Positions 1-64,000 of a stretch of DNA of 64,000 nucleotides are shown here, piece after piece. Source of the stretch: a virus; the IMG/VR virus record IMGVR_UViG_3300050144_000106. The stretch is one strand, 5' to 3'. The notes below the pieces were generated by a model. It did no database searches and was not told where the DNA came from. It was given only the letters and a program-made list of their open reading frames with translations. Made by a program: the position numbers and the translations under genes. Every line of letters begins with the position of its first letter. The stretch's first letter is position 1.

Positions 1-86
1 TTTTCATTTCTTCGCTCCAACCTCTCAAAGGTAAATCAACCCGATGAACCGGTGTTGTGCCGTAGCTGCTCTGTGTGGTCGCCGTC
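1..86. repeat. Near-duplicate of 1539-1624: 5' end plus upstream region of a minus-strand cassette gene
   Basis: ttttcatttcttcgctcca.cctctcaaaggtaaatcaacccgatgaacc.gtgttgtgccgtagctg... recurs at 1539-1624 with a few substitutions. It includes the same GGAGCGAAGAA-ATG (minus strand). The ATG at 7..5 starts a gene that runs off the left edge. Confidence 0.85.
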
Positions 87-182
87 GCACAACTGAACGT
101 TGCAGGCGACAAACTGCCTGCGACGTCATTTTGTTTCTCTAGCCTAGTCCTGGGCAGTTTGCGCCTGAACTAGACGTTAGCA
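87..182 (+). repeat. attC site 1 (96 bp)
   Basis: R'' GCACAAC (87-93), TGAAC, L'' GTTGCAGGCGAC (99-110) ... L' GCGCCTGAAC (161-170), TAGAC, R' GTTAGCA (176-182). The stem is extended by AAACTGCC/GGCAGTTT. Confidence 0.8.
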
Positions 183-196
183 AACACAGCGCAAGG

Positions 197-457
197 TCAG
201 AAAGTTGTTGGGCGGGCAATCGCTCGTGTAAGAGCCATCAAGCCGGTTTGGAGGTCGGTTTGACCAATAGAAACCCAACGCTGATCCAAATCGGGCATAG
301 AACGCAGCTCATCAACTAGCGAACCAAGCTCCACGCCTGCGGCTTTTACTTTGTTAATCAGCAGCGCTTCGGCTTCAGTCAGCTGGCGATAGCCGGTGAA
401 CTTGTGCTGCTGTGCAAAACGTTCAACCGGTTTTTGTTCGGTTTCAATAGCGCTCAT
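197..457 (-). CDS. Small phage-type protein (86 aa). It resembles the N4 gp49 / Sf6 gp66 family, to which I believe the cyclic-oligonucleotide sponge Acb2 belongs.
   Basis: The ATG is preceded by GAGGA 5 nt upstream. Motif FTGYRQLTEAEALLINKVKAAGVELGSLVDEL...PDLDQRWVSIGQTDLQTGLMALTRAIARP. The family assignment is from memory and is not searched. Confidence 0.75.
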   Translation of the reverse strand: MSAIETEQKPVERFAQQHKFTGYRQLTEAEALLINKVKAAGVELGSLVDELRSMPDLDQRWVSIGQTDLQTGLMALTRAIARPTTF

Positions 458-466
458 GTCAAATCC

Positions 467-609
467 TCAAAAAACAACCACGCAAATAACCGCGCATGGC
501 AAGCGGCAAAATAGTATATTTTATTACATCCGCACGCGAAGGAAATAAAATACATCAGTTTACCAACGCTCCAAACTCACAAAACCGCCGCCAGCCAACG
601 TTTCAATGC
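467..609. repeat. Conserved ~140-bp cassette module, copy 1 (copy 2 at 1005-1147), with an AT-rich inverted repeat
   Basis: Near-identical sequence occurs in cassettes 2 and 3 between the minus-strand ORF start and the attC. IR TATTTTATT (517-525) / AATAAAATA (544-552). Confidence 0.8.
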
Positions 610-694
610 TGCTAACTGAACGTTGCAGGCGACAGCCCCAAAAGCCTGCGCTTCGCTCCGTCTTTTAGGGCTGCGCCTGAACTAGACGTTAGCC
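610..694 (+). repeat. attC site 2 (85 bp)
   Basis: R'' TGCTAAC (610-616), TGAAC, L'' GTTGCAGGCGAC (622-633) ... L' GCGCCTGAAC (673-682), TAGAC, R' GTTAGCC (688-694). Confidence 0.8.
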
Positions 695-985
695 AAACAG
701 CCGAATCATTTTCGTTGGCGAAGAAAAAGAACAACTTCGGTCTCTCGCTGAGCGCGGGGGAACCCGCATGGGCCGCGTAACGCCGGCCCGTCGCTGGCGC
801 ATTAGGCGGTAATGCACGCCATCGGCTAGGGCCAAGATTACATTCTGGCCGTTTGGTGCACCATCGCGCGCCATCAAATGCTGCGCTTTAATCGCAAGCA
901 CGGGCCACCACTCGGCTGCGGCAGTGCGCAGCAGCCAGCAGGCTAGCTTGTTGGCTAAGCTGCGGATGATGTGGTGGGACTGCAT
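689..985 (-). CDS. Hypothetical cassette ORF (98 aa), doubtful
   Basis: It is the only ORF of plausible size in cassette 3. It has an Arg-rich low-complexity C-terminus and no clear SD, and its TAA stop lies inside the R' box of attC2. It may be decayed or non-coding. Confidence 0.3.
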   Translation of the reverse strand: MQSHHIIRSLANKLACWLLRTAAAEWWPVLAIKAQHLMARDGAPNGQNVILALADGVHYRLMRQRRAGVTRPMRVPPRSARDRSCSFSSPTKMIRLFG

Positions 986-1004
986 GAGTTAATTCAGCCT
1001 TTGC

Positions 1005-1147
1005 ATCAAAACAACCACGCAAATAACCCGCGCATGGCAAGCGGTACAACAATCTATTTTATTACATCCGCACGCGAGCGTAATAAAATACATCAGTTTA
1101 CCAACGCTCCAGACTCACAAAACCGCCGCCTGCCAACGTTTCAATGC
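1005..1147. repeat. Conserved cassette module, copy 2
   Basis: Matches 467-609. Perfect 10-bp IR TATTTTATTA (1055-1064) / TAATAAAATA (1081-1090). Confidence 0.8.
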
Positions 1148-1232
1148 TGCTAACTTAACGTTGCAGGCGACATCCCCAAAAGCCGGCGCTTCGCTTTGTC
1201 TTTTGGGGCTGCGCCTGAACTAGACGTTGTGC
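1148..1232 (+). repeat. attC site 3 (85 bp)
   Basis: R'' TGCTAAC (1148-1154), TTAAC, L'' GTTGCAGGCGAC (1160-1171) ... L' GCGCCTGAAC (1211-1220), TAGAC, R' GTTGTGC (1226-1232). Confidence 0.8.
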
Positions 1233-1248
1233 GACTTGCTCAAGATCG

Positions 1249-1545
1249 TTAAGTAATATCTGGATACATGGCCTTCGCCACTTGAGGCCACGGCTCCCCA
1301 AACGAAAGCATTTTTCCCGGCGTTGTTCCCTCTGGCAGCATATGTTTAATTACTTCTCCCAGCGCCGCACGGAGTGGGTCGGACTTACGCACTTCGCCCA
1401 TGAGGTGGGCGTGGATTCTAAAATGCTCTTGCTGGGCACGCTCATTCTCTTTTTTCAGCTTGTCGTTTTCATGCTCATAATACTTCACCATCAATTCGTT
1501 GTAGTGCGCTTTATCCGCGCACATGCTTATTACAGGCTTTTCCAT
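1249..1545 (-). CDS. Hypothetical cassette protein (98 aa, charged/helical)
   Basis: ORF track gives 1249..1566. I moved the start to ATG 1545 (MEKPVISM...), preceded by GGAGCGAAGAA. The translation looks protein-like, unlike the overlapping plus-strand ORF. Confidence 0.65.
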   Translation of the reverse strand: MEKPVISMCADKAHYNELMVKYYEHENDKLKKENERAQQEHFRIHAHLMGEVRKSDPLRAALGEVIKHMLPEGTTPGKMLSFGEPWPQVAKAMYPDIT

Positions 1546-1624
1546 TTCTTCGCTCCATCCTCTCAAAGGTAAATCAACCCGATGAACCTGTGTTGTGCCG
1601 TAGCTGTCCGGTGTGGCTGCCGTC

Positions 1625-1677
1625 GCACAACTGAACGTTGCAGGCGACCCTGCGGGCGCCTGAACTAGACGTTGGGC
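1625..1677 (+). repeat. attC site 4 (53 bp, short central region)
   Basis: R'' GCACAAC (1625-1631), TGAAC, GTTGCAGGCGAC, cctgcg, GGCGCCTGAAC, TAGAC, R' GTTGGGC (1671-1677, a perfect GTTRRRY). It has the same arms as attC1 but the centre is almost absent. Confidence 0.7.
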
Positions 1678-1991
1678 AACAGGTCTACCTTGGCTTTAGT
1701 TTGTAGGCCGGGTGCTCACCCAGGGCTAGCAGTAACCCGGCGTGCTCAAGCGAGCTGAGAGGGTGCCTGCCTGTCTTGATGCGGCTCCAGGCGTTTCGTA
1801 GCGCCTACCTGAGCGCCCCAGCATGGCGGCCAGCCCTTGCCGCATGCAATCCCTGCTCCTCGCCAACTGCATGTTTGGCAGTTTACAGAAAATGTGTAGC
1901 AAAAGCTATTGCGTTAATCAGTAGCAATGGCTACAGTTCACCCCATCGCGCCACCGATCCCGCCGGGACGGGCAGCGATGGGAGATCAGAC

Positions 1992-11854: not shown

Positions 11855-12985
11855 ATGGGAACGATCACAAGGCGAACGCGCTCAGACAAGACTGCCGCGT
11901 TTACCGCACAGATTCGCATCAAACGACAAGGCAGCAAGACCTACACAGAGGCCAAAACGTTTGACCGGGAGGCCGCTGCCAGGCAGTGGCTGCGCAAACG
12001 GGAAGGCGAGCTGGCGGCGCCTGGGGCGCTTGATGGCGCAGGCGACGTGCCACTCAAAGACATCATAAAAAGATACATTGAAGAAACAAACCGAGCGTAT
12101 GGGAAAACAAAAGCTCAAGTGCTGAGATCAATCAGTGATTCTTGGCTTGGGGATATTAATGCAACCCAGTTAAAAAGCTCAGAATTTGTGAAGTTTGGGA
12201 AATATCTAGAAAAAAATGGCGCTTCCCCGTCAACTGTTTCAAACTACATGAGCCACTTGGGCGCGGTGATTTCTGTTGCAAAACCAGCGTGGAGCTACCC
12301 TGTTGAGGCTACAGAGTTAAAGTCGGCAAGCGTTGTGCTCAAACAGCTTGGCGTGACAGGGAAATCAAAAAAGCGCGAAAGAATACCGGCGGTCGATGAG
12401 CTTAGCCGGCTAATGGAGTTCTTTGAAAAATCTTACTTATCCGATAAAAGAACCATTCCAATGCACTGGGCAGTTGCTTTTTTGCTCTTTAGCACAAGAA
12501 GACTTAACGAGTGCTGTAATTTAGTTTGGGAGGATTTGAATATCAAAAACTCTGAACAAATTGTGCGCAACATGAAAAACCCAGGCAGCAAAAACGGCAA
12601 TGACGTAAGAGTTGCCGTTACCGCCCCAGCATTGCGGGTTTTAATGGCATGGCACAAGAAATGTGGAGCACCCAAAAAAGGTAAAATATTTGGGTGGAAC
12701 TCTGATTCTGTGAGCGCTAGATTCACGCGAGCGTGCAAAATCTTGGAGATTGAGGATTTGCACCTGCATGACTTGCGTCATGCCGGGATCACCAGACTTT
12801 TTGAAATTGGGCTATCCATCCCCAAGGTGGCAACGGTTACAGGGCACAGGAGTTGGCAAAGCCTTCAGCGGTACACCCACATTCGGCAATCTGGCGATGT
12901 GTGGGCCAGCTGGGAGTGGCTTGACCGACTTTGCCAGGTGCATGAACTTGTGCCGCCTCTTGATGCGGCATTGCCTCAGTCTTGA
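11855..12985 (+). CDS. int: Tyrosine recombinase / phage integrase (376 aa)
   Basis: The C-terminal catalytic region reads LHLHDLRHAGITRL...ATVTGHRSWQSLQRYTH. The gene is AT-richer than its surroundings. Confidence 0.9.
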   Translation: MGTITRRTRSDKTAAFTAQIRIKRQGSKTYTEAKTFDREAAARQWLRKREGELAAPGALDGAGDVPLKDIIKRYIEETNRAYGKTKAQVLRSISDSWLGDINATQLKSSEFVKFGKYLEKNGASPSTVSNYMSHLGAVISVAKPAWSYPVEATELKSASVVLKQLGVTGKSKKRERIPAVDELSRLMEFFEKSYLSDKRTIPMHWAVAFLLFSTRRLNECCNLVWEDLNIKNSEQIVRNMKNPGSKNGNDVRVAVTAPALRVLMAWHKKCGAPKKGKIFGWNSDSVSARFTRACKILEIEDLHLHDLRHAGITRLFEIGLSIPKVATVTGHRSWQSLQRYTHIRQSGDVWASWEWLDRLCQVHELVPPLDAALPQS

Positions 12986-31263: not shown

Positions 31264-34200
31264 TCAATTCTTGGCAACAGCCAGCGGTGGGCTGACCTTC
31301 ATGGTCAGGGATCGCGCAGCCCGTGGGTAGGCTGCGATCAAGCGCTTCCACACCCGAAGCGGTACCTCCCAAGCGTTCAGCTCTCTCTTCCACTTGGCGA
31401 CATCGCCTGCGGCTTTAGCTGACGCCTTGATTTGATCTTTCCACGTAAAGGTCTCGCCGCCAATCAGCACCAGGTCGTTGTCGCCTGGCTCGCGCTGTTT
31501 CGTGGCTGGCGCCACGCCTGCCGCTTCGGTGGCCTTTGGGGCCTCCAGCGCTTTGATGGCATTGGCATAAATCGCAACGCTGCCTGGGGATGCAATTTGC
31601 AGCAGACTTGCCGCACCCCCCTGACTGTAGTCCGGATCAGTTGTGAGGTCATACCCAGCAAATGCCTGCTGCACCCACTGATCCAAAGCTTGATCTATTT
31701 CTTGCTGCGTGCTCAGATCTTTGAGGCTGTCTTCTAGCCGGGCACCTTGATGCGTGGCAAGAAGAACAGCCCTACTAGGCCAGGTGTGGCGATCCACCAC
31801 AGCCTTGGCATCGCTCCACGTCAATTTCAGGCCACGGGCCGCCGCAAACGCCAACATGCTGCTGAGTGAAATGCTGTATTGCATGCGCCCAGCTGGCCGG
31901 CGCAGCACGCCGGCGCTGGCCGGCGCGGTGAACATCACGCCGGCGCCGTAGTCGCCATCGCGCACGTCCGACACGATGGCGGCCTGCTGCTCCACGATAG
32001 CGCGCACCACCCGCGTGCCCTCCACAGCCTTGGCTGGATCAATCACATCGGGGAAGAGCGGGGATGGCAGCATGTAGTCGCGCAAGGTGTAGCGCAAGGC
32101 CACCGGCTTGGCGCAGCGCTCCCCCACCTCGGGCAACAGGGCGCTATAGAGATCGGGCTGGTGCTCAGGCTTGACGGCGGAAAGCCGTTCCTCCACCTGC
32201 GCCGCAGTGCTCAGGCAGGCGTCGTAGCCAGGCATGCCGGGCAACACCAACTCGCCGCCGCCGCTCATGGCGTCGGCCACCGACACGGTAATTGGCGCCC
32301 CTTGCTCCAGCACCCAGCCCACGGCCACCAGCGCATCGCCGCGCGTGGATTTGCGCACAAGGTAAAGCGGATTGCCGTCCTTGCGGATGAAGGCGCCGGT
32401 ACACACCGGCTTGCCATCCACCATAGCAGCCTCGCCGGTTTCCAGCTTGTCGGCCAGCACCGCCGGCATGCCCCCGGCTTCGCTCGCCAAGCGCTTGAAG
32501 TTGACCTTGGACTCCTCCACCATGCTGCGCGCCAAGTCCACCTCGGACTGCCAGTCTTGCTGGAGGATCGAGCCGTCGCTCACTTCAATGGCGAACATCG
32601 GGTAAGTCGCCCCCGTCAGGCTCTTAAACATCTCTTCTTCGAGCTTTTCGCCGCGCTTGAGTGAGCGCTGCACCTCCTGGGTGACTTGCGCCAGCGTGAC
32701 CACTTGGCCGTCATCCCTGCCGCCGTTTTTGCGCTTGATCGTGCCGGAGGTCTCAAGGTCGCGCTTCAGGCCGATCAAGCGGGCATCGATGTCGGCCTTG
32801 GTGGCTTGGTTGCGCAGCACCGACGAAGCGCTGGCCCTGGGGTTGTTGATGCGCTCTTGCAGAAGGCTCGACTGCGCCAACAACACCGCACAAGCGCAGG
32901 CCTTGCGGGCATACCAATGAGCCGGCGTGGCGTTGCCAGCCAGAAACGCCAGTTGCTTGGCTGCCGTGGCCAGGTTGACGGCTTGCTTGTTGCGCGTGCC
33001 CACGGCGCGCTTTTGCTCCTCCAGAGCGGTGGCCCGCTGCTGCATTTTGGTCATGGCGTCAGCGTCGCCCACCGAATCAATCAGGGCCTCCAACTGCTCG
33101 CGGGTCAGACCTGACTGAATGGCCACGTTGTCGCTGCCATCCTTGGCCATCAGGCTGTCGATCCAGCCGGCCTTGTTGCTCACCAGTTGGCGCTTGTAGC
33201 TGTCGAAGGTGCCGTCCGCGTCGTAGTGGTAGACGCGCACCATCTCGGTTTCGTTGCCCTGGCGCACGCCCCGGCCGTCGCGCTGGGTCAGGCTGTCGGG
33301 CGTCCAGCCGGTGGTGAGGTGGTGAATGGCCTGCGTGCCCTTTTGCAGGTTCAGCCCCACCTCGCCCTTCTCGTTCATGATGACCACGCGGTACTTATTG
33401 CCTTCCCCGTCCGCGTTGAATCCATCCTGCACCGCCAGGATTTCCTCGGGCTTGCCATTTACCTTGCCGGTGATGATGGCGATGGCCCCGGTCGGCACCC
33501 CGCAGCGCTTGATAAGCAAACGCCGGAGCTTGTTGTGGATGGCTAGGGTGTCGCAGAAGATGAGCTGGCGCACGCGCTGGGTTCGCTGCCCATTGATGAC
33601 CCCGCGCGGGTGAGCCTCCTCGTTTTGAAAGTTCTCCAGCAGCGCCGCCAGCTTTGGTGGCACGCTCACATCCAAATCCACGCCAGCCTTCTCCGCCATG
33701 GTCTCGAAGGCGGTCTGGGTCTGGGCGTCCATGCTGTCCAAGCACAGCCGCCCGTCATCCAACACCCGCGCCAAAGCTTTGATCCTTACCAGCGTCACAT
33801 CGCTGTCGCCATCGCGGATGGTTTTGGTGCCCACCACGGCGCCGGCCAGCGTCATTGGCCCAGGGCGCGAGCGCTCTTCCACCGGCGCCTTGGTCTCCCA
33901 GCGTGCCACCAGGTCGGCCACCTGCACCTGCTGGACGGCGGAAACCCGGTAGAACGTGGCCCGGTCGTCTAGCTCCGGGTCGGCAATCAGCGCCGCCATC
34001 TTGTTGATGAGGTTGAACGGGTGGCCAATCAGCTCCATCGGCTCGCCGAACTTTTCGGCCACGCGGTCATAGGCATCCTTGCTGCCGCCCACGGTTTTCT
34101 TTTCCATCAAGGTATCGATGGCAAAGCGGAAAGCGCCCTTGTAGTCTTGCAGGGTGGCTTTCACGCTTTCGGGCAAGTCCACGGCCACCGACGCCCGCCC

Positions 34201-37200
34201 CGCATCGGGCGCGACGATTTGCTCGCCCACTTCCTCGGCCGTCTTAATGGTGCAGCTCTGCTGAATGATGCGACGCAAAGCCTTGGCGTTGTTCAGCCCG
34301 ACGAACACGTCATAGGACTTGATCTGCCCGTCGAGCGTTTCCTCGTCGCGGTTTTCCATCGCGCAGGTCAGCTCCATGAACTGGTCGGAGCCTTCCACCA
34401 TCATCAAGTCGTTCACCCGCTGGTCACCCATCGTCAGCGAGAGCATGGAGTACACCTCCAGCGGGCTGTTGGTGATTGGGGTGGCTGAGAGGCCCATCAC
34501 GCCATCGTTGCGCACGTTGCCCTTGCGCACGAACCAGGCCTTAGCCTGGGCATCCAAGCCACGGCCCGAGGGGTCAGCCAGGCTCAGGAACTTGCCGCCC
34601 TTGAAGTCGTTGACCTTGCGGCTGTTCTTGAAAGCGTGCGCCTCATCGATGACCAGGGAATCAATGCCTAGGTCTTCGAAGAACGGCGCGGCCGCGCTCT
34701 TGGTCTTGTCCTGGGTAAGCTGGAAGATCAGGGCTTCGCGCAGGCTCTTGGCGCGCTCGTTGTCCTTGTTCTTGTCGGACTCGGCATAAGCCTTGTCCAC
34801 TTTGGCCAGGTGCTTGTCGTACTCGGCGGCCGTGGCGTCCTTAAGACGTAGGCGCTGGAAAGCCTCGAAGGTTAGGAAAATCTTGCTGTGGCGGTTCTCC
34901 AGGATGCGGTTCAGGTCGCGGTCGTAGTCTGAAGAGCTGACGCTGAATGAGCCGTCGGCTTTCACGGTCAAGCCCACAAACAGACAGTCCTCCGTGGAGG
35001 CGTAGACCTTGGCTGCCTCCTTGCGCCAGTTGGAAAGCACCGAGTTCGGCACCACGAACGCGGTTTTCTTCTTCGTGCCGATGGCCTGGGCGTACTGCAC
35101 CGCCACCAGGGAGGTGCTTGTCTTGCCTAAGCCCACGCCAAAGCCGTTGATGCCGCTGAACTCGCGTGCGGTCTTGCGCACGTAGGCGCACTGGAACCCT
35201 TTTACGCCCCAATCGGGATTGAGGCCGGGCACAGCCAGGGGGCTTTCGTCGTCAGCTTGCTCGAAGTAGAGCCGCTCGGGATCGTTGGCCAAGGCTTCGA
35301 GCTTGCCCATCACCACCGGGTTGGCGCGCACCCAGCCGCCGAAAGCCTGCTCCGCCTCGTTAATCATGCGGCGCAGCTCTTCAAGCGCCTTCTTGTTGTC
35401 GCTGAACTCCGCCCCGCGCAGCGAGACCGTGCGCTTGCGCATGTACTCGCCCAAACGCTTGAGCAACTTTTCATGCTCGTTCTTGGGCGTCTTGATGTCG
35501 CAGGCGATGTAGGGCGTGCCGTCCTGCTCGTCGTAGGCCACAACAAAGCGTGGATCGATGAAGCGCCGGACGAACTCGGCCTTTTGCTCCAGCGGCACCA
35601 AAGGCGATGCCAGGTTGAAGCTCATACTGGCGGGATCAAGCCGGCTCACACGCTGCTCGGCCACCAGCTTCTGGCGCACCAGCTTGTCGCGCACCGCATC
35701 GCTCTTGGCGGCGGCGATGTCGCCATCGATGCGCCGCGAGAAGTCGCCGTAGTTGCCCACGTAGTAGTCAGCCGCCCGGCACACGCTGGCGCCGTCGCTG
35801 GAAACGCACCAGTCGTCGCTGGCATGCGGGTTGAATGCCTCGCCCAGCACGCCCTTGGCGTCGCCCAGACTCACCCAGGCGCTGCCGCCTCCGGCGTTGT
35901 AGCGCAGAGCCTCAAAGCGTTGATCCGGTGTGCGCTCGTCGGGCTTGTCCTGGGGCAGCACATCCCCGCGCCACACAGCAGAGTAGCCGCCGGCACGGGT
36001 GTAGTGGATGCCAATCTTGGCCATGGCGGTCTTCAGCCGGCGATTGAACGTGGCAGGCACCTCGCGCGCGGCGCCGGCGTAGCGCTTCATCGCCTCCGAC
36101 AGCTCTGGGTACTCCTCAAGGTAGTTCACCGGCCCGTCCTCAGCTTGGGCTTCGTGCATCACGTCGTCCATCGCCAAGCCCACGGCCGCCGCACTCCAAA
36201 GCCCATCTTGCTGCGCCGCCGGCGCACCGGCCACGCTACTCAAGGTCGAGCGCAGCCAGCCGGGCGCATCAAAGCCCCGGCCGCTGGCCTGCATTTGCTC
36301 CAGCACCTGGGCAGCAGCCGGGTACTCCACCTTGGCCAACACCGCCCGCAGCGGCGTGGATAGCGTGCCCAGCACCTCCTCGAAACGCGCGCTTTGATCC
36401 GATTCGCTGGGTAGTGCCACCCATGCGCCGCCCTTCATCACCAGGGTTTGCCCTGCGTGGCGCACTGTGTCGCCCTCGTTGTAAATGATGGGCTGGGTTT
36501 CGGTCGCATCCAGCAGCGCCCACTCCACCCGGCTGGGCGGGAACTTGCGCAACAGCTTGGCAATGTCGGCCACGCTGCCGGTGTTGATGACGCGATCCAC
36601 GTCGCGCAGCTTGTTAGGGTCTTTGGCGACAAACTCGCCCAGCACATGCTTGGCACCCTCAGACGTCTTGAAGTAGTTGCCGCCGATGAACTCATCCCAC
36701 AGCACCTTGGCCTGGGTCAGCACGCCAGGGTTTTGCTCGCGCAGCTCGGCCACCTTGTCCAGCACCTCGCGGCTGTACTTGCGCAGCACGATCACGTCGG
36801 TGATGGTGTCCGCCTGGGCTGTGCCAAACACGCTGTTAGGCAGGCGGTAGGCGCCCACGAACTCAGCCATGTAGCTCAGCCGCTGCCGCAGGCTTTCTTC
36901 TTTGCCGTCCTTGCCAGAGACGCAACGCGGCGGCGTGATGAACGCCGCCAGGCCACCTGGGCGCAGCTTCTCCAAGCTGCGCAGGACGAAGTAGTTTTGG
37001 ATCGGCTCGCGGCGGTACTTGGTGTCCTTGAGCTGGTTGCCGCCCCGGTCAGCCACCTCGCCGAACGGCACGTTGGTGACTACCGCGTCATAGACCTCGT
37101 CCGGGGTGGCCGCCGCCACCGCTTCGAAGGCGCTTACCGTGGTTGCGTAGCCCGGCCCGTTGTTCACCAGCGCGTTGATGCGCCCGCTGGTGGCGTTCAG

Positions 37201-37863
37201 CTCCACCGCGTCCACGGCGGCATTGGCCGGCGCGGTGGCGCCAAAAACCCCCACGCCAGCCGCAGGATCAAGCACGCGCCCACCGGCAAAGCCAAGCTCG
37301 CCCAGCAAGTCCCACACGCCCGATGCCACGGGCTTGGGCGTGTAGTACTCGTAAGCGCTGCCCTTCTTGCCGTCCGCACCCTCCAAGTTGCCACCGGTAC
37401 CGCTGTACTTGGCCAGAATGGCTTTCTGGGCGCCATCCAAGGCTGACGGGTTGACCTCGCCGGCATCTATCTGGCGCAGCAAGGCCAAGGCGGCCGTGTT
37501 GTCGCGCTTGCGCTGAGCCAGCTTGCGGCTGGGGTCAAACTCGTAGAGGTGGCCTTGGGGTGTGCGCACCGCCGGCGCGGGGCTGTCTGGGGTCGGGTCG
37601 GCCACCTGCGCCGGTGGCGGCGCCTCAGCACCGGCCGCCTTAGCTTGGCCAAGTAGCAGCGTGCGCAGCTCAGCCAGCCGGCGCCCCAGCGTAAGGCGCT
37701 CCCTCAAGCTGGGTTTAGCGGCCAAACTTTGGCGAACGCTGGCCAGTTCTTTGCCAAGCCGAATGCGCTGTAAGAGCGGGAGTTTGACGGCCGCAACGGC
37801 GGCATCCACTTTGTCAAACAGGGTACGACGACGGGCCAGCAATGCGGCGTAAACAGTGCTCAT
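31264..37863 (-). CDS. Giant N6-adenine methyltransferase + SNF2-type helicase protein (2199 aa), P1 DarB-like
   Basis: Methylase motifs are VLDPAAGVGVFG and VVTNVPFGE. Helicase motifs are GFGVGLGKTSTSL, LVIDEAHAFKN, GLSATPITNSPLE and QRDGRGVRQGN. A long C-terminal extension has no recognisable domain. Confidence 0.8.
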   Translation of the reverse strand: MSTVYAALLARRRTLFDKVDAAVAAVKLPLLQRIRLGKELASVRQSLAAKPSLRERLTLGRRLAELRTLLLGQAKAAGAEAPPPAQVADPTPDSPAPAVRTPQGHLYEFDPSRKLAQRKRDNTAALALLRQIDAGEVNPSALDGAQKAILAKYSGTGGNLEGADGKKGSAYEYYTPKPVASGVWDLLGELGFAGGRVLDPAAGVGVFGATAPANAAVDAVELNATSGRINALVNNGPGYATTVSAFEAVAAATPDEVYDAVVTNVPFGEVADRGGNQLKDTKYRREPIQNYFVLRSLEKLRPGGLAAFITPPRCVSGKDGKEESLRQRLSYMAEFVGAYRLPNSVFGTAQADTITDVIVLRKYSREVLDKVAELREQNPGVLTQAKVLWDEFIGGNYFKTSEGAKHVLGEFVAKDPNKLRDVDRVINTGSVADIAKLLRKFPPSRVEWALLDATETQPIIYNEGDTVRHAGQTLVMKGGAWVALPSESDQSARFEEVLGTLSTPLRAVLAKVEYPAAAQVLEQMQASGRGFDAPGWLRSTLSSVAGAPAAQQDGLWSAAAVGLAMDDVMHEAQAEDGPVNYLEEYPELSEAMKRYAGAAREVPATFNRRLKTAMAKIGIHYTRAGGYSAVWRGDVLPQDKPDERTPDQRFEALRYNAGGGSAWVSLGDAKGVLGEAFNPHASDDWCVSSDGASVCRAADYYVGNYGDFSRRIDGDIAAAKSDAVRDKLVRQKLVAEQRVSRLDPASMSFNLASPLVPLEQKAEFVRRFIDPRFVVAYDEQDGTPYIACDIKTPKNEHEKLLKRLGEYMRKRTVSLRGAEFSDNKKALEELRRMINEAEQAFGGWVRANPVVMGKLEALANDPERLYFEQADDESPLAVPGLNPDWGVKGFQCAYVRKTAREFSGINGFGVGLGKTSTSLVAVQYAQAIGTKKKTAFVVPNSVLSNWRKEAAKVYASTEDCLFVGLTVKADGSFSVSSSDYDRDLNRILENRHSKIFLTFEAFQRLRLKDATAAEYDKHLAKVDKAYAESDKNKDNERAKSLREALIFQLTQDKTKSAAAPFFEDLGIDSLVIDEAHAFKNSRKVNDFKGGKFLSLADPSGRGLDAQAKAWFVRKGNVRNDGVMGLSATPITNSPLEVYSMLSLTMGDQRVNDLMMVEGSDQFMELTCAMENRDEETLDGQIKSYDVFVGLNNAKALRRIIQQSCTIKTAEEVGEQIVAPDAGRASVAVDLPESVKATLQDYKGAFRFAIDTLMEKKTVGGSKDAYDRVAEKFGEPMELIGHPFNLINKMAALIADPELDDRATFYRVSAVQQVQVADLVARWETKAPVEERSRPGPMTLAGAVVGTKTIRDGDSDVTLVRIKALARVLDDGRLCLDSMDAQTQTAFETMAEKAGVDLDVSVPPKLAALLENFQNEEAHPRGVINGQRTQRVRQLIFCDTLAIHNKLRRLLIKRCGVPTGAIAIITGKVNGKPEEILAVQDGFNADGEGNKYRVVIMNEKGEVGLNLQKGTQAIHHLTTGWTPDSLTQRDGRGVRQGNETEMVRVYHYDADGTFDSYKRQLVSNKAGWIDSLMAKDGSDNVAIQSGLTREQLEALIDSVGDADAMTKMQQRATALEEQKRAVGTRNKQAVNLATAAKQLAFLAGNATPAHWYARKACACAVLLAQSSLLQERINNPRASASSVLRNQATKADIDARLIGLKRDLETSGTIKRKNGGRDDGQVVTLAQVTQEVQRSLKRGEKLEEEMFKSLTGATYPMFAIEVSDGSILQQDWQSEVDLARSMVEESKVNFKRLASEAGGMPAVLADKLETGEAAMVDGKPVCTGAFIRKDGNPLYLVRKSTRGDALVAVGWVLEQGAPITVSVADAMSGGGELVLPGMPGYDACLSTAAQVEERLSAVKPEHQPDLYSALLPEVGERCAKPVALRYTLRDYMLPSPLFPDVIDPAKAVEGTRVVRAIVEQQAAIVSDVRDGDYGAGVMFTAPASAGVLRRPAGRMQYSISLSSMLAFAAARGLKLTWSDAKAVVDRHTWPSRAVLLATHQGARLEDSLKDLSTQQEIDQALDQWVQQAFAGYDLTTDPDYSQGGAASLLQIASPGSVAIYANAIKALEAPKATEAAGVAPATKQREPGDNDLVLIGGETFTWKDQIKASAKAAGDVAKWKRELNAWEVPLRVWKRLIAAYPRAARSLTMKVSPPLAVAKN

Positions 37864-39575: not shown

Positions 39576-43451
<3,876 letters not shown>

Positions 43452-52800: not shown

Positions 52801-54387
52801 TTAATCTGCGCCTTGGACGATGGCGCGCAGCTCATCCAGCAAAGCGTTGCTGCCTGCGTCCGCCAGCTCACTCCCTAGCAAAGAGGTGCGCATTTGCTGG
52901 CGCGGGACATACGTGACCGCTTCGAGGAATGCAAACGTCATAGAGTCGATCATGTCGGGACTCTTAATCCCATCCGCCGCCATTTGCTCTTTGCTCGCCA
53001 TTTTGTGCTTAAGGCCCCCGTGCTCGACAAAGTAATAAGGCAGGTTGCTCCCCTGCTTTATGAGTTTGTTGCGCTCAAGCTGGTTGAGTGGGGCCGTAAC
53101 ACTTACCCGGCCTTGCCTGCACGCATTGCGAAAACGCACATTGGCGCACGCACGTTGGTTGAAATATTGCCTGCGGTAGTCCGACCTAAAACACGGCTCA
53201 CCCCAGTTGATGCGCGTCACCGGTTTGCCCGCACGCTCGATGTGAGTGCAGGTGGCATGCCCCACCCCGCCCGCGTCAACATAGGCCAGTATGTCGCTGG
53301 CGCCATCCAAGATTTGGATGATCTCCCCTGCCAGATCGATCTCGTTTTTGGTGTTACTGCACAGGGGCAACTTCATGAACTCCACGCGGCGCGCATCCGG
53401 CTCAAAGTCCGCACTGCCTATCACTTTCGCCAGCCAAATAACGCTGTCGTCGCGGTACTCGCCCGCACCCACATCACCCAGCAAAATCACACCGTATGGC
53501 TCATCATCCCCAATGATTGGCCCGCGCTCAAACAGGCTTTGCACTTCGTCGCGCGTCAGCAGCAAATTACTGGTGTCCTGCGCAAACAAACCCAAAACGC
53601 CAATTTGATATTCAATGGACTGCCGCCCACCGCATTCAAACTCTCGTGTTTTGAGCCATTCGTCGGTGACAAAAGGCGACTCCTCAGAGTTGAATCTAAG
53701 AGATTCCCATGTGCCCCCAGATTCGATGCTCAGCTCATGATGGCTGTCGTAAAACCGCCCAATGCACGATACCCCTTGAGAGGCCATCACCGTGCGGTTG
53801 CCGCCCTGGGTTTGGGTGCGCGCAATCACATCATGGTGCTCGTCCGGCACGCCGGCCGCTTCGTCAATGATGATGAGCTGCCAAAAACGGTGCTTGCCCG
53901 CAATCCCCACAGCCTGCCCGGCTTGCATGGCAACCTGCGCAATAAACCACTGGTCAGAATACCCATTCACCAACACCCGAGTTTTGGTGATCTTGTAGTA
54001 ATAGTTGATCCATGCGTGCGGCCCTTGAGCAATGGCCATGCGCCGGTCGGACATCTCTTTCCAAATCCCGTCGGCCACCTGCTGGATACGCGGCGCCCCG
54101 ATGTAAGTGTTGGAGCCAGTTTCATCCTTGCCATCGTATTCAGCCAAGGGATGGCACAAGAGGTGCCACAGCGCGAGCACAGCGAACGACGCGGTCTTGC
54201 CTGTACCTGTGCCAGATACAACGGAAACCTTGGCCGTCTGCGGCTCCATGCTGTCAAACAGCGCAGCTTGATCGTCAGACGGCACCATGCCGCACACTTC
54301 AATGGCAAACCGCAGCGGGTCAGGCTGATAGCGGGCCACAAAATGCAAATACCGCAGGTCTAGCAGCAGGTCACGGCTCCTCCTCAT
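52801..54387 (-). CDS. terL: Terminase large subunit (528 aa)
   Basis: Walker A VVSGTGTGKTAS, Walker B-like LIIIDEAAGV, and a C-terminal nuclease-type region. ATGA overlap with terS. Confidence 0.85.
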   Translation of the reverse strand: MRRSRDLLLDLRYLHFVARYQPDPLRFAIEVCGMVPSDDQAALFDSMEPQTAKVSVVSGTGTGKTASFAVLALWHLLCHPLAEYDGKDETGSNTYIGAPRIQQVADGIWKEMSDRRMAIAQGPHAWINYYYKITKTRVLVNGYSDQWFIAQVAMQAGQAVGIAGKHRFWQLIIIDEAAGVPDEHHDVIARTQTQGGNRTVMASQGVSCIGRFYDSHHELSIESGGTWESLRFNSEESPFVTDEWLKTREFECGGRQSIEYQIGVLGLFAQDTSNLLLTRDEVQSLFERGPIIGDDEPYGVILLGDVGAGEYRDDSVIWLAKVIGSADFEPDARRVEFMKLPLCSNTKNEIDLAGEIIQILDGASDILAYVDAGGVGHATCTHIERAGKPVTRINWGEPCFRSDYRRQYFNQRACANVRFRNACRQGRVSVTAPLNQLERNKLIKQGSNLPYYFVEHGGLKHKMASKEQMAADGIKSPDMIDSMTFAFLEAVTYVPRQQMRTSLLGSELADAGSNALLDELRAIVQGAD

Positions 54388-61748: not shown

Positions 61749-61976
61749 TCACTCAGACGCCCCGACGGTTCCAGCCGTCGGGGCGTTTTCTTTTAGGCGT
61801 CGAAACTCTTCGCGGCCATCGCCAAAGCATTTACGTTCGTCGTCTTGCGCTTTTTCAATCAAGCGCAAAAGCCAACTGTTTACGCTCATGCGCTCTTTCT
61901 TGGCTTGGGATCGAACCCACGCTTTGATGTCTGGCGGCATGCGCAGACCAAAGGGGGTGATTGGTTTGTTGCTCAT
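61749..61976 (-). CDS. Arc/MetJ-type ribbon-helix-helix repressor (75 aa)
   Basis: PFGLRMPPDIKAWVRSQAKKERMSVNSWLLRLIEKA. It lies immediately upstream of ant. Confidence 0.7.
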   Translation of the reverse strand: MSNKPITPFGLRMPPDIKAWVRSQAKKERMSVNSWLLRLIEKAQDDERKCFGDGREEFRRLKENAPTAGTVGASE

Positions 61977-61990
61977 CGCGTCTCCTGCGG

Positions 61991-62039
61991 CTTCACCATG
62001 AAGCTGCGTGCAACGATGATACCCGGCTTCACTTTGAAG
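61991..62039. promoter_or_regulatory. Candidate operators in the divergent arc-like / mnt-like intergenic region
   Basis: Two 13-bp palindromes, CTTCAC-C-ATGAAG (61991-62003) and CTTCAC-T-TTGAAG (62027-62039), each preceded by CGG. A third GTGAAG half-site lies at about 62051-62056. Confidence 0.5.
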
Positions 62040-62077
62040 TCAACATCACAGTGAAGTCGTGACGTAGGATTTGCAAC

Positions 62078-62524
62078 ATGGCAAACCAAGACGATTTCAT
62101 CCGCACGGCCCTGAGAGTTCCTCCAAGTCTGCACAAACAGCTACACGATGCAGCGAAGACGGCAAACAGGACATTCAATGCCGAAATCGTGGATAGGCTG
62201 CAAGCCAGCTTTCAACCGCCCGCCGGCGTCAGCCAAGGTCAGGGCGAGGCATGGGAAGGATTGGCCAGCCAGCTTATGCAAGCGCAGCGCACAGCAGCTC
62301 GGTCGGGGGTGGCCTTGGTGAACGCAGTCGCCGCGCTAAAGAAACAGGGCTTCGCTGACGAAGAGCTGCTAGCCGATTGGCAGGAGCGCGCGCTGGACGG
62401 GGCGATGCAGGCAGTGAACATGCTCCCAGTCAACTTGGCAGATCTGGAAGACTTGGTGCGCCGGATTCGTGAAGGCAAGGCCGCGCCGCCTTGGATAAGC
62501 GACAACCCAATAAACCACAGGTAG
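62078..62524 (+). CDS. Mnt-like ribbon-helix-helix repressor (148 aa)
   Basis: FIRTALRVPPSLHKQLHDAAKTANRTFNAEIVDRLQASF. Divergent from the arc-like/ant operon. Confidence 0.65.
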   Translation: MANQDDFIRTALRVPPSLHKQLHDAAKTANRTFNAEIVDRLQASFQPPAGVSQGQGEAWEGLASQLMQAQRTAARSGVALVNAVAALKKQGFADEELLADWQERALDGAMQAVNMLPVNLADLEDLVRRIREGKAAPPWISDNPINHR

Positions 62525-62529
62525 ATGCG

Positions 62530-63498
62530 ATGCTTCATAAACTCACAATATGCACCACCGCATATTTATTCGCACTTCCATCATTTGCAATAAATGAAAC
62601 GCAAAAATCAATAATTGACAGCAGGGTGTTATCATGCAAAATAATATATTGCACAAATACAATGTTATTTAATAGATGCTCGGGCGATCTTGCAAAATGC
62701 TTTGATGGGACAATTACATCCAGCATTTCCGAGTTTTCATTAACTGATCCAGGCGCAATTTGCGGAGACCCAGCTGCACCAGTATTCACATCACCAAAAG
62801 GCGACTACGGGCATGAGCGATGCATGTCAACCGCCCGAACTGAAATTGCAAACATTTCAGAAAAAAAAGCTAGGGCAACGGCTGAAGCAATGGCAGCAGA
62901 GTCGGCCAAGCTAAAAGCAGAAGAAGAGCGAAGGGCCGAGCGTATTCGTCGAGAACGCGAGGCAGAAGACCTTAGAAAAGCAGAAGAAGAAAAACGATTG
63001 GCCGATATTGAAGAGCGCGCCAAAGAGGGTTTGCGCATAGCGCAACAAGCGGCCAAGGCTGCATCAGCGGCCGAATCAGAAAAAATTGAATCTCGCAGAA
63101 AACTACGCGAAGAAATTGCCAAAGTTGGCCCCAAGCAAGGAAACCCAACAACAGAAAGCATGTCAACCATTGCCGCAACTCTTGGCAACGCCTATCGCAA
63201 GAGTGGAACAGCCGGCATGCTGCTTGTTGAAGAGAACTGCTGGAAAAAGGCATCCAGGGGCGATGAATTTGCATTCACTCAATGTGTTAAGTTTTTTGGG
63301 GTTCTAGCGGTTATTGATGGGGCTAAAGCAAATCAAGAAAGACGGCCGATAAACTACGGGGTGGCGCAGGGAAAAATTCGAGTTGTGGAGAACGGACAGA
63401 AAATGGGTTTTGCTAAACAACGAATTGATGACCTTATGGCGTGGGTTTTAGTTGACTATGAAAAGATAATTGCCGCCGCAATGTCTACAGGGTTATAG
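62530..63498 (+). CDS. Secreted/periplasmic coiled-coil protein (322 aa), AT-rich moron
   Basis: Start at ATG 62530. Signal-peptide-like MLHKLTICTTAYLFALPSFA, a Glu/Lys/Arg/Ala-rich coiled coil, and a globular C-domain. Confidence 0.65.
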   Translation: MLHKLTICTTAYLFALPSFAINETQKSIIDSRVLSCKIIYCTNTMLFNRCSGDLAKCFDGTITSSISEFSLTDPGAICGDPAAPVFTSPKGDYGHERCMSTARTEIANISEKKARATAEAMAAESAKLKAEEERRAERIRREREAEDLRKAEEEKRLADIEERAKEGLRIAQQAAKAASAAESEKIESRRKLREEIAKVGPKQGNPTTESMSTIAATLGNAYRKSGTAGMLLVEENCWKKASRGDEFAFTQCVKFFGVLAVIDGAKANQERRPINYGVAQGKIRVVENGQKMGFAKQRIDDLMAWVLVDYEKIIAAAMSTGL

Positions 63499-64000
63499 GC
63501 AGCGCTCCTTTTCAAACCCCCACACCTGAAACACGTTATAGGTCAGCTTGTGTAACCCCTTGACCGTCACCAGCAGCGAATCACGCACCGCACCATCCCT
63601 GCCAGTCCGGGGCTGGTGCTCGAAGTAGCCCCGCTCCATCGTGTAGGCTGATGCCTTCAAGCTGCCTTGCCGGCCGTCTGCCAAATCCCGCCGGTAGAGC
63701 CACCCCACCTCGATCAGCTTGCGGATCAGCGCACGCTCACCAACCCCGATGTTCTTGGCTGCATCGCGGATGCACATGCACCCCGGTCGGTGGTGCAGGT
63801 CATCGAAGACGGCCGCCTTGGGCACCGTCACCGCAAGCACCTTGGCCTGCTGGGCGGTTTCCTGCTCCAGCGCCTGACGACGCTCAAACTCAGCCGCCCA
63901 GGCGCGGGCTGCCGCCGCCGGGTTGGTGAAGTCAGGCAAGGCTGGCGTGGCGGGATGCGCTGCCTTGGCGCGACGCTCGCACTCGATGAAGTACAGACGG
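63493..64000 (-). CDS. Antirepressor-type protein with KilAC domain; 5' end beyond the window
   Basis: The track lists 63493..63939 (TTG start). The frame stays open to position 64000, reading ...RLYFIECERRAKAAH... (Ant-type motif). The KilAC-like part reads PKAAVFDDL...IRDAAKNIGVGERALIRKLIEVGWLYRR. Confidence 0.6.
   Translation of the reverse strand, partial: RLYFIECERRAKAAHPATPALPDFTNPAAAARAWAAEFERRQALEQETAQQAKVLAVTVPKAAVFDDLHHRPGCMCIRDAAKNIGVGERALIRKLIEVGWLYRRDLADGRQGSLKASAYTMERGYFEHQPRTGRDGAVRDSLLVTVKGLHKLTYNVFQVWGFEKERCL

Follow-up and report, generated by a model that had tools for sequence, protein, structure and literature searches.

An integrase-less array of attC cassettes with inverted cargo in a temperate tailed-phage genome

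Using a combination of covariance modelling, structure-only site detection and comparison of related contigs, our work here shows that positions 1-1677 of the window (the whole stretch of viral DNA that was analysed, 64,000 nucleotides long) are four fifths of a five-cassette CALIN, a cluster of attC sites without an integron integrase, whose cargo genes all lie on the attC bottom strand, with each attC preceding its gene. The five sites share one strand and span 2.7 kb, the fifth attC and its cassette (A) lying directly left of position 1. We think it probable that this CALIN, placed in the early or accessory region of a phage, undergoes exchange by a host integron integrase (IntI) acting in trans and functions as a bank of accessory genes.

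attC sites and cassette boundaries

The four repeats of the window are attC sites (Table 1). A covariance model trained on 28 heterologous attCs unrelated to the array (including R100 aadA1 and an IntI-linked array) returns all four as full-length matches on the + strand (43.6-52.8 bits, E 1.4e-11 to 3.8e-9; the aadA1 positive control gives 59 bits) and finds no further attC in the 64-kb window, where the next best match reaches 12.6 bits (E 0.65). A structure-only detector, working without family-specific sequence and with a false-positive rate of 0.1 per 64 kb of shuffled sequence, picks the same four sites in the window and no others, while Rfam at its gathering thresholds returns nothing in the window, an attC-type match included. 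The preliminary description, made from the letters alone, had recognized four repeats with the attC layout; its coordinates are right, and the model, with significant matches at all four, and the detector agree on them. The 18-mer GCGCCTGAACTAGACGTT is confined to these sites, with four copies where 0.03 would be expected by chance.

Table 1. Features of the cassette array and the phage integrase, in window coordinates (negative numbers lie left of position 1)
Feature	Coordinates	Strand	Description	Evidence
Cassette B	-455..176		most lies left of the window	
Cargo gene B, start	1..7	-	first two codons and one base of a 149-aa ORF (MKKTF...); remainder left of the window	contig L001 sequence, gene call
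Leader of cargo gene B	8..86	-	5'UTR with RBS; 93% identical to the cassette E leader (1546-1624)	
attC1	87..182	+	96 nt, long variable centre; R'' GCACAAC, R' GTTAGCA; site of cassette B	covariance model 48.1 bits, E 2.5e-10; detector; fold
Cassette C	177..688	+	512 nt between G|TT crossover points; start TTAGCA complementary to own R'' TGCTAAC	
Cargo gene C	197..457	-	86-aa Acb2-family protein (cyclic-oligonucleotide sponge, anti-CBASS)	
Leader of cassette C	458..609	-	repeat D1, inverted repeat I3	
attC2	610..694	+	85 nt; R'' TGCTAAC, R' GTTAGCC	covariance model 52.8 bits, E 1.4e-11
Cassette D	689..1226	+	538 nt	
Cargo D, candidate ORF	689-985	-	98 aa; stop codon within the preceding R' box	
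attC3	1148..1232	+	85 nt; R'' TGCTAAC, R' GTTGTGC	covariance model 46.9 bits, E 5.2e-10
Cassette E	1227..1671	+	445 nt; first 20 nt and leader common to cassette B	
Cargo E ORF	1249-1545	-	98 aa, orphan	
attC4	1625..1677	+	53 nt, 7-nt centre; R'' GCACAAC, R' GTTGGGC; distal array end	covariance model 43.6 bits, E 3.8e-9
Non-cassette spacer	1678..1991	.	separates attC4 from the first gene of the rightward early operon	
Tyrosine recombinase	11855..12985	+	ordinary phage integrase; sole PF00589 gene in the whole genome	PF00589

Every window site has R'' and R' boxes with the conserved AAC and GTT triplets (RYYYAAC ... GTTRRRY), and these AAC/GTT pairs are invariant across the 28 sites of the family. 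The previously noted extra G of L'' is confirmed; it is joined by an extra A 6 bp further in, so that L'' has two extrahelical bases (top strand GTT[G]CAGGCG[A]C), in a geometry identical to that of attC_aadA1 (GTT[C]AAGCCG[A]C). On the bottom strand the same stretch reads G[T]CGCCTG[C]AAC, the distal extrahelical base being T. This arrangement agrees with the published rules for attC sites, namely two to three extrahelical bases, the first and last a 6-bp stem apart, with the distal T on the bottom strand, opposite the R-box AAC (PMC5027507); the one deviation is a proximal bottom-strand extrahelical base of C where G is usual. The 5-nt spacers TGAAC and TAGAC are unpaired on both arms, the variable centres measure 7, 39, 39 and 50 nt, and the bottom strand of attC2 folds at -26.4 kcal/mol (z -5.9), leaving two bases bulged. 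Pairing in the L-box helix is 97% over the 28 sites of the family, and 10 of 13 L-box/stem pairs show compensatory, double-sided changes. For this alignment, which had been fitted to the model, the covariation score of 0.40 compares with 0.14 in shuffles (0/500 reach the observed value) and 0.01-0.10 in slid controls. Within a site, R-box positions 2-4 fail to pair in 13-17 of these 28 cases. From sequence and fold we infer that an integron integrase would recombine the folded sites on their bottom strands.

The boundaries between cassettes are equally regular. For all five cassettes, R' of one site is the reverse complement of R'' of the next at 7/7 or 6/7 positions, the hybrid R-box signature of G|TT strand exchange. 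Cassette starts are complementary to their own R'' at 6/7, 7/7, 7/7, 6/7 and 7/7 positions from A to E, and the complementarity reported earlier for the cassettes inside the window thus holds (7/7, 6/7, 7/7). At its proximal end the array begins with a lone GTTAGCC after GTCTAAA-TCAC, with no attC ahead of it and no promoter identified; a similar layout recurs in a second phage (L120), which makes two cases only.

Position in the phage genome

The window is part of the circular 71,767-bp genome of a temperate tailed phage. Its right end (61964..64000) agrees with the far end of contig L001 with 0 mismatches in 2,037 nt, which closes the circle, and the ~7.8 kb from there to position 1 hold replication and regulatory genes followed by cassettes A and B. 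On one side of the array lies a 151-aa gene beside the cII/SSB/replication module, with cII-like CP76, SSB, replication genes, pRha and AntA following leftward; on the other lies the ERF-YqaJ/RdgC operon, a rightward early operon encoding proteins of 134 and 97 aa, ERF-YqaJ, a 508-aa protein and RdgC. The spacer ahead of this operon yielded neither an attC match with the covariance model nor a consensus promoter in the promoter scan. Among isolated phages the closest is Xanthomonas phage Rb1, whose TerL is 61% identical; it has the same early-gene order, and no attC by the covariance model. Separately, the interval from the 151-aa gene to CP76 is variable, some contigs having an extra 104- or 116-aa gene there that is not attC-flanked.

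Searches with the PF00589 and TIGR02249 profiles find no IntI gene in the whole 71.8-kb genome. The lone PF00589 protein scores 32 bits on TIGR02249, where the cut-off is 265, and aligns in its catalytic C-terminus only, in keeping with the earlier view of an array without integron integrase. That view had left two readings: either the phage has a CALIN-like array in its early region, or a sedentary chromosomal integron is followed by a prophage at its distal end. With phage genes flanking the array in the circular genome, and with no IntI, the CALIN belongs to the phage and not to a chromosomal integron abutted by a prophage. The one observation in favour of a window that starts in a chromosomal integron, or of a chimeric assembly at the junction, is that the window is cut inside the array. 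Leftward of position 1, where the preliminary description had suggested looking for more attC sites, intI or host genes, come one more attC and cassette and then phage genes without intI, up to the mismatch-free closure of the circle; the junctions on both sides of the array are identical in more than eight independent contigs, from at least eight samples (JGI and Logan data); and the integrase with its adjacent att region lies 10 kb away, inside the element. We therefore regard the chromosomal or chimeric origin as refuted, and the array as phage-borne.

The array is identical in eight contigs from several samples, and on that scale its turnover is therefore not rapid. Contigs retrieved through the flanking 134-aa gene were likewise all identical to the window, with no empty site or alternative array among assemblies that break at the repeats.

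Cargo genes and their orientation

Cargo C is an Acb2 homologue by family membership: it matches Pfam PF24729 (Acb2_Tad1_hairpin) at 63.9 bits (cut-off 27, E 1.6e-17), the 'p26' structures PDB 8H2J/8IXZ at E 3e-11, and phrog_717. The typical small phage protein that the preliminary description saw in the second cassette can thus be specified as a homologue of an anti-CBASS sponge, which is predicted to bind cyclic oligonucleotides and block CBASS. We considered whether Acb2 genes generally ride in cassettes, an idea ruled out by 48 other viral contigs encoding Acb2 relatives, where acb2 is not attC-flanked (308 kb scanned, with one weak detector match); the cassette form of acb2 is peculiar to this lineage. 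The remaining cargo, A, B, D and E, has no sequence match in Pfam, NCBIfam, PHROG, PADLOC or PDB. Cargo E has no relative at all, itself being the sole match among 5.8 billion proteins, and cargo D, an ORF called only in some contigs, is doubtful and the least certain of the five. Partial relatives of cargo B share a central 64-aa block, and the protein is a mosaic.

The real oddity of the locus, which the preliminary description missed, is that the cargo runs antisense to the attC sites. The strand of the Acb2 gene is backed by homology, and the inverted layout is found in all members of this attC family, comprising at least 28 genes. R100 (intI1, aadA1, attC), an IntI-linked array (L039), Tetrasphaera phage TJE1 and Shewanella phage M16-3 all come out in canonical orientation with the detector and model used here, and we could accordingly reject a reversed strand convention as the cause. 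The array departs from the canonical rule by which cargo on the attC top strand is followed by its attC and, being promoterless, is read from Pc. We found inverted cargo neither described in the phage-CALIN literature nor present in the published examples that we re-analysed, and found no published figure for its frequency in ordinary integrons. In the promoter scan the sole consensus-like promoter of the conserved leader (ATTACA-17-TAAAAT) is on the + strand, antisense to the cargo, with no convincing promoter in the cargo sense direction. Without a Pc and with the genes inverted, each gene must depend on a promoter of its cassette or of the phage, the attC lying in or ahead of the 5' leader.

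Inversion throughout the family, set against the canonical R100, TJE1 and M16-3, might also mark a distinct phage-adapted cassette system run by a recombinase other than IntI, be it the phage tyrosine integrase (11855-12985) or an enzyme of phage or host that has escaped recognition. The C in place of G at the first bottom-strand extrahelical base and the likeness of the proximal junctions in two different phages would fit such an enzyme as well. However, no recombinase gene is common to the backbones that carry these arrays, PF00589 being absent in L118, L120 and L122 and from within 8 kb of the array in L012; the geometry of the sites is exactly as IntI requires; and arrays of the same geometry adjoin a true IntI in L039. 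We consider another recombinase very unlikely, and IntI remains our preferred enzyme.

The inversion leads us, more tentatively, to posit a phage-adapted branch of integrons, in which 'reverse' cassettes (attC and leader ahead, gene on the recombinogenic bottom strand) possibly circulate among unrelated phages of freshwater or soil Betaproteobacteria and provide a store of counter-defence genes, acb2 among them, as opposed to being accidental captures. If this were so, inversion would keep the genes silent on landing in a host integron and, in the phage, would make the attC bottom strand coincide with the non-template strand, the more often single-stranded of the two; cassette mobility would then be coupled to early transcription or induction, when SOS also turns on the host IntI.

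Proposed cassette exchange and known systems

The same attC family with its inverted layout recurs in at least four other phage backbones, with 13 sites in one of them. Four contigs (L012, L118, L120 and L122) have the same attC types with other cargo, adjoining other phage modules, and exact R'/R'' links, eight in L118 and three in L120, involve five different R boxes. One site family common to at least five phage backbones implies that phages draw on a shared pool of exchangeable cassettes. An 18-mer scan of IMG/VR gave L012 as the only real relative, and exact 18-mer scans of genome and metagenome contigs gave chance matches in coding DNA without attC structure and no host integron or genome with this attC type, so the IntI partner is one that we infer.

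We hypothesize that the host, probably a betaproteobacterium, supplies in trans the integron integrase that would have inserted the cassettes and would still exchange them, and that the phage most likely uses the array as a bank from which counter-defence and accessory genes can be swapped. Since SOS typically controls both IntI and prophage induction, exchange would be expected mainly at induction. The first insertion may have used a simple GTT secondary site (attG or attI-like) at window position -964, after which existing attCs would have served as targets. Cassette insertion by IntI at GWT attG sites is known for double-stranded genomes (bioRxiv 10.1101/2022.09.11.507474), and IntI1 recombines attCs from phages (PMC9892861).

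Some of the variation may have another origin. Two related contigs, L009 and L010, hold the same cassette parts with different neighbours, ORFs and attCs: in L010 the ORF body alone is replaced between conserved ends, and in L009 an attC is swapped behind an unchanged leader. Their breakpoints fall within cassettes, either at the start of the ORF or at the leader/attC boundary, and not at G|TT, so those events suggest homologous or illegitimate recombination as opposed to site-specific exchange. The ERF/YqaJ system of the phage could additionally swap ORFs through homology between conserved attC-plus-leader modules, which would explain these variants. Such homology is evident within the array, where 1-110 repeats directly as 1539-1648 (D2) and where 471-608, including an AT-rich palindrome at 505-564 in the cassette C leader, is part of a ~215-nt leader and attC module that cassettes A and D share at 92-93%.

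Taken further, these observations could mean that the attC sites are relics of integron cassettes, their attC-plus-leader modules (80-215 nt, 92-93% identical) now serving only as portable homology by which phage single-strand annealing (ERF-YqaJ here, RecT in L118) shuffles, duplicates and deletes genes in the manner of the PeSL modules discussed below. Besides the ORF replacement in L010 and the attC swap in L009, this would account for inter-cassette similarity that reaches well past the attC to the start codon, for the mosaic cargo B protein, for the annealing-protein/exonuclease module adjoining the array both here and in L118, and for the absence of IntI from all these phage loci. Shuffling by homology nevertheless fails to predict R boxes that are mismatched within a site and exactly complementary across a cassette, in five sequences, or both extrahelical bases, the 6-bp spacing and the compensatory L-box changes across very different attC types in one array, and relics would be expected to decay. 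We judge relic sites rather unlikely as the whole explanation and continue to favour exchange by IntI, with which a homology mechanism can coexist.

CALINs and integrons in phage genomes are already known from the survey of Qi, Rajabal, Ghaly, Tetu & Gillings (2023, Front Microbiol, PMC9892861), with Tetrasphaera phage TJE1 and Shewanella phage M16-3 among its examples. The occurrence of such an array in a tailed phage is thus less unusual than the preliminary description assumed. As in the present phage, the published cases are IntI-less attC clusters in tailed phages with small cargo, some of it of counter-defence flavour (orphan DNA methylases). In TJE1 and M16-3, however, the attC follows the ORF on the same strand, whereas here it lies on the opposite strand ahead of the cargo; the published arrays have 2-3 heterogeneous predicted sites, compared with 5-13 sites of one attC family in several backbones; and the cargo here includes Acb2.

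Insertion at attG sites creates SALINs and CALINs in bacterial chromosomes (bioRxiv 10.1101/2022.09.11.507474). Similarly, the array described here starts at an isolated GTT half-site, without a preceding attC or a nearby integrase, as an attC x attG event followed by further insertions would leave it, although the target is a phage genome and not a bacterial chromosome. The proximal sequence GTCTAAA-TCAC-GTTAGCC, which looks like a small inverted-repeat core and has a counterpart of similar layout in a second phage, may instead be a dedicated attI-like site. T4-type phages reportedly carry PeSLs, promoter-stem-loop 'mobile regulatory cassettes' described by Arbiol et al. in 2010. The present array resembles these in its repeated stem-loop and leader/promoter module ahead of small accessory genes, its hyperplastic early region and its ORF swaps. 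To our knowledge PeSLs have no R/L boxes, extrahelical bases or hybrid R-box chain and move by homologous recombination only, in contrast to the attC-like array here.

For Acb2 itself, cargo C aligns to the C-terminal binding region of PaMx33 p26 (PDB 8H2J, 8IXZ), and the flanking attC sets it apart from the 48 other loci. The attC upstream of and antisense to the gene offers a search criterion for accessory and counter-defence genes of phages, most of which are orphans here, and the inverted cargo a handle on cassette expression and mobilisation without an integron platform. Finally, integrons, both sedentary chromosomal and mobile, are reported in recent work to be banks of anti-phage defence cassettes (bioRxiv 10.1101/2024.07.02.601686, 10.1101/2024.07.02.601719; Science 2025). 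The phage array shares with them the recombination-site architecture and the character of an exchangeable bank of small genes in phage-host conflict, but is phage-borne, holds an anti-defence gene, lacks the intI/attI/Pc platform and has inverted cargo. The locus thereby mirrors the bacterial defence banks, as a phage array built on the same recombination sites with a proven class of anti-defence gene.

Recognition of the attC sites

The preliminary description had placed four integron-type attC repeats on the + strand of the window, and both their positions and their strand are confirmed here. The 18-mer GCGCCTGAACTAGACGTT, common to all four, has no further copy in the window; its four occurrences compare with a chance expectation of 0.03. 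A detector built from layout only (AAC, 5 nt, a 3-bp L triplet, a 6-bp stem flanked by one extra base at each end, a stem extension, then the complementary arm, 5-6 nt and GTT) returned exactly these four sites in 64 kb and 0.1 sites per shuffled window. The covariance-model check proposed earlier was run with a model trained on 28 heterologous attCs, including attC_aadA1 of plasmid R100, two sites adjacent to an integron integrase (IntI), and other L-box types from several loci; none of the training sites (0/28) carries the window's GTTGCAGGCG L-box. All four repeats matched it over their full length (E 1.4e-11 to 3.8e-9), while the next best match in the window reached 12.6 bits (E 0.65) and the aadA1 positive control 59 bits. 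The four repeats are genuine attC sites.

On the + strand, each site runs from R'' (GCACAAC or TGCTAAC) through a 5-nt spacer, GTT[G]CAGGCG[A]C, a variable centre of 7-50 nt, GCGCCTGAAC and TAGAC to R' GTTNNNN, with two extra bases, 6 bp apart, on the 5' arm. This geometry is the same as in GTT[C]AAGCCG[A]C of attC_aadA1, whose sequence matched R100 at 100%. Extrahelical bases are known to lie on the bottom strand, in the arm opposite the R-box AAC triplet, with a conserved T as the distal base and a 6-bp stem separating the first one from the last (Nivina et al., PMC5027507). The window's minus strand, G[T]CGCCTG[C]AAC, fits these rules except that the proximal base is C instead of the usual G; the + strand is therefore the attC top strand, as had been assumed. 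When 28 sites of the window's attC family and sister types were aligned to the covariance model, the L-box/stem helix was 97% paired, with compensatory changes in 10 of its 13 pairs. The covariation score of 0.40 compares with 0.14 after shuffling (reached in 0 of 500 shuffles) and 0.01-0.10 with partners slid; fitting the alignment to the model favours structure, a bias that the slid controls carry as well.

A cassette array inside a phage genome

Using the exact Acb2-like protein of the array as query, we retrieved contigs from ten samples, the longest being JGI Ga0501141_000021 (L001; 72,024 nt). Over 10,457 nt on one side it shows no difference from the window, nor does its far end from window 61964-64000; with 0 mismatches in either, the two overlaps together close a phage genome circle of 71,767 bp. 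The contig exceeds the circle by a 257-nt terminal overlap, and the window represents a rotated portion of an assembly that is circular or terminally redundant; the window's own two ends lie only ~7.8 kb apart in the same genome. Leftward of position 1, where the preliminary description had advised looking, lie one further attC and cassette and then phage genes (see table). Among the precomputed gene calls for the whole genome are terminase, baseplate and tail genes, DarA_N and a single PF00589 protein, which scores 32 bits on the integron-integrase model TIGR02249 (cut-off 265); by these criteria the genome lacks IntI. Given phage genes on both sides, the closed circle and a sole PF00589 protein far below the cut-off, the array is a CALIN, a set of clustered attC sites that lacks IntI, inside an unintegrated temperate phage genome. 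Of the two readings offered earlier, a CALIN-like array in the phage early region is thus supported; the closed circle and the phage flanks exclude the other, in which a prophage adjoins a chromosomal integron's end.

Features of the array and its phage genome (window coordinates; negative values lie left of position 1; L002 and L003 are other contigs of the same phage)
Feature	Position	Strand	Remark
AntA, pRha	beyond replication genes		left of array
Replication genes, SSB, cII-like CP76	left of 151-aa gene		divergent
Second variable spot	L001:12047-12669; L002:7136-7450; L003:12083-12433		between CP76 and 151-aa gene
151-aa gene	left of lone GTTAGCC
Lone GTTAGCC	-964 (L001:11421)		no attC ahead
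Fifth attC, cassette A	left of cassette B
Cargo B	1-7 + L001:10346-10900	-	rest of cassette B left of position 1
attC1	87-182	+	48.1 bits
Cargo C	197-457	-	86 aa
attC2	610-694	+	52.8 bits
attC3	1148-1232	+	46.9 bits
attC4	1625-1677	+	43.6 bits
Leader palindrome	505-564; 1043-1102; L001:11051-11110		cassettes A, C, D
Spacer	right of array		314 nt
134 aa, 97 aa, ERF-YqaJ, 508 aa, RdgC	right of spacer	rightward	operon
Phage integrase	11855-12985		right of operon
Backbone genes	31264-37863; 39576-43451; 52801-54387	-
DarA_N gene	L104:7247-7786		in structural block
Glycosyltransferase-like gene	56153-57385	+	410 aa, EryCIII-like_C

The proximal end of the array resembles that of L120 (top-strand coordinate 6377), another phage locus: each has an inverted-repeat partner followed by a spacer of 4 nt, the last three being CAC, and then GTT (GTCTAAA-TCAC-GTTAGCC and ATGAAC-ACAC-GTTCGGC), a layout reminiscent of the attI1 simple site, although two cases are too few to call it attI. 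In otherwise identical phage contigs, the second variable spot is either empty or occupied by a gene of 104 or 116 aa; no flanking attC sites were found, so that exchange 1 kb from the array proceeds by another mechanism.

The backbone is partly P1-like or Rb1-like, its TerL being 61% identical to that of Xanthomonas phage Rb1 and ~31% to P1 PacB. It encodes a 1,291-aa protein and another of 2,199 aa, which has a faint SNF2 hit and whose Rb1 counterpart is annotated 'chromatin remodeling complex ATPase'; these large proteins may be packaged in the virion or ejected, as another class of counter-defence. The glycosyltransferase-like gene, of low local GC (0.51) and oriented opposite to its neighbours between early/regulatory and terminase genes, looks like a moron, possibly with a role in DNA or surface modification.

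Inverted cargo and conserved leader modules

The product of cassette C scores 63.9 bits against Pfam Acb2_Tad1_hairpin (cut-off 27) and hits the solved Acb2 'p26' structures 8H2J/8IXZ with E 3e-11, showing by homology that the cargo includes a predicted anti-defence gene; in 48 other viral contigs encoding Acb2 relatives, no attC sites surround the gene. For cargo A, B, D and E, searches of Pfam, NCBIfam, PHROGs, PADLOC and PDB sequences gave no match; 5.8 billion proteins include no relative of E, and ORF D is the least convincing of the set. Cargo B has only a central 64-residue block (residues 25-88) in common with five proteins, at 80-86% identity. It is a mosaic, its N- and C-terminal parts being unrelated to relatives in other arrays (P0003, P0004), and the counterpart of the block in the phage contig L118 follows a different attC type.

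All five cargo genes (5/5) are on the minus strand, which for the attCs is the bottom strand. The end of each falls at the preceding R' box or within it, and each starts behind a leader abutting its own attC, so that the order along the gene is attC, leader, cargo. Cassettes A, C and D have in common a ~215-nt leader-plus-attC module at 92-93% identity, and in B and E the common part comprises 111 nt of leader and attC together with the opening 20 nt of the cassette; the proteins behind these modules are unrelated to each other. Since every fetched array looked inverted, we considered a reversed strand convention, which the controls reject. R100 gave intI1 (-), aadA1 (+) and its attC (+) directly after the gene; in L039, another IMG/VR contig, a true IntI (TIGR02249, 473 bits) is located upstream, on the opposite strand to the attC top strands; and in the already published elements of Tetrasphaera phage TJE1 and Shewanella phage M16-3 the covariance model placed attCs downstream of annotated genes on the same strand. 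With the controls correctly oriented, the inversion is real: the TJE1 and M16-3 CALINs are canonical and the window's family is inverted.

With no Pc and the genes inverted, expression would have to come from cassette or phage promoters; our promoter scan identified none driving the cargo. The leader of A, C and D contains an AT-rich palindrome, ATATTTTATTACATCCGCACGCGAAGGAAATAAAATAC, whose only consensus-like promoter (ATTACA-17-TAAAAT) runs along the attC top strand, antisense to the cargo, and which may function as an operator or as a promoter, either bidirectional or antisense. One idea is that inversion would make the recombinogenic bottom strand the non-template strand and would keep phage genes silent in a host integron. 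Other IMG/VR arrays, of putative viral nature, also contain bottom-strand genes (L039:1022-5000, L030:6826-8759, L035:35-2729, L040:3522-5136, L042:2952-4218). Their pooled bottom-strand ORFs include an N6_N4 DNA methylase (2.6e-20; L039, which has its IntI at 1022-2047), MT-A70 (5.9e-18; L042) and an HTH domain, and the top-strand ORFs gave a single marginal hit; in L035 an RBS overlaps the R'' box (GTTAGGTGGTCAATTATG). Since such genes occur in these arrays, the IntI-linked L039 included, inverted cargo may be more frequent in environmental integrons than textbook accounts imply; we found no published baseline frequency for bacterial integrons.

Cassette boundaries, exchange and precedent

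Within sites, R-box positions 2-4 are unpaired in 13-17 of 28 cases. Across cassettes, R' of each site matches the reverse complement of the next R'' at 6/7, 7/7, 7/7, 6/7 and 7/7 positions for A-E, and it is exactly complementary in eight consecutive links in L118 and three in L120, involving five different R boxes. Mismatch within the site combined with a match across the cassette is the trace of G|TT strand exchange, and the boundaries are of IntI type; neither homologous recombination nor a terminator function predicts such a combination.

The same attC family recurs in other phages. L012 (IMG/VR), adjoining DUF1376 and DnaC-like replication genes, has five attCs, one ~95% identical to attC1. 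L118, a contig of 42.6 kb reached via relatives of protein B, carries RecT, H-NS and a tail-collar gene; among its 13 sites are several that hardly differ from the window's, interspersed with other L-box types. L120, which belongs to a Betaproteobacteria MAG and carries baseplate genes, has four sites, and L122-L124 each carry a single attC1-like site. In all these loci the called genes lie opposite the attC top strand and no PF00589 gene is present; the closest isolate, Rb1, has no attC. In short contigs from other samples, L010 retains the start, leader and attC1 of cassette B around a replaced ORF body and behind a different attC, and L009 carries the Acb2 cassette behind a different cassette and ending in a different attC. 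A cassette pool is thus common to several phage backbones, at least five of them with one attC family.

We propose that a first cassette would have been inserted by host-supplied IntI at a simple GTT site, IntI being known to use GWT 'attG' sites in double-stranded genomes (bioRxiv 10.1101/2022.09.11.507474), and that later cassettes would be added or exchanged at attCs, phage attCs being IntI1 substrates (PMC9892861). The phage ERF-YqaJ probably also swaps ORFs via the long conserved modules, as the breakpoints of L009 and L010 lie inside cassettes. Scans with 18-mers across genome and metagenome contigs turned up neither a host integron nor an IntI partner.

Both the occurrence of CALINs in phages and the proposal that they provide phages with counter-defence cargo were published in 2023 (PMC9892861). 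New here are a multi-cassette array with good support, lying in the complete genome of a temperate phage, Acb2 as a cassette, one attC family common to at least five phage backbones, and uniformly inverted cargo behind conserved attC-leader modules. The 2023 study makes no mention of cargo orientation, and its examples are canonical, unlike the window's family.
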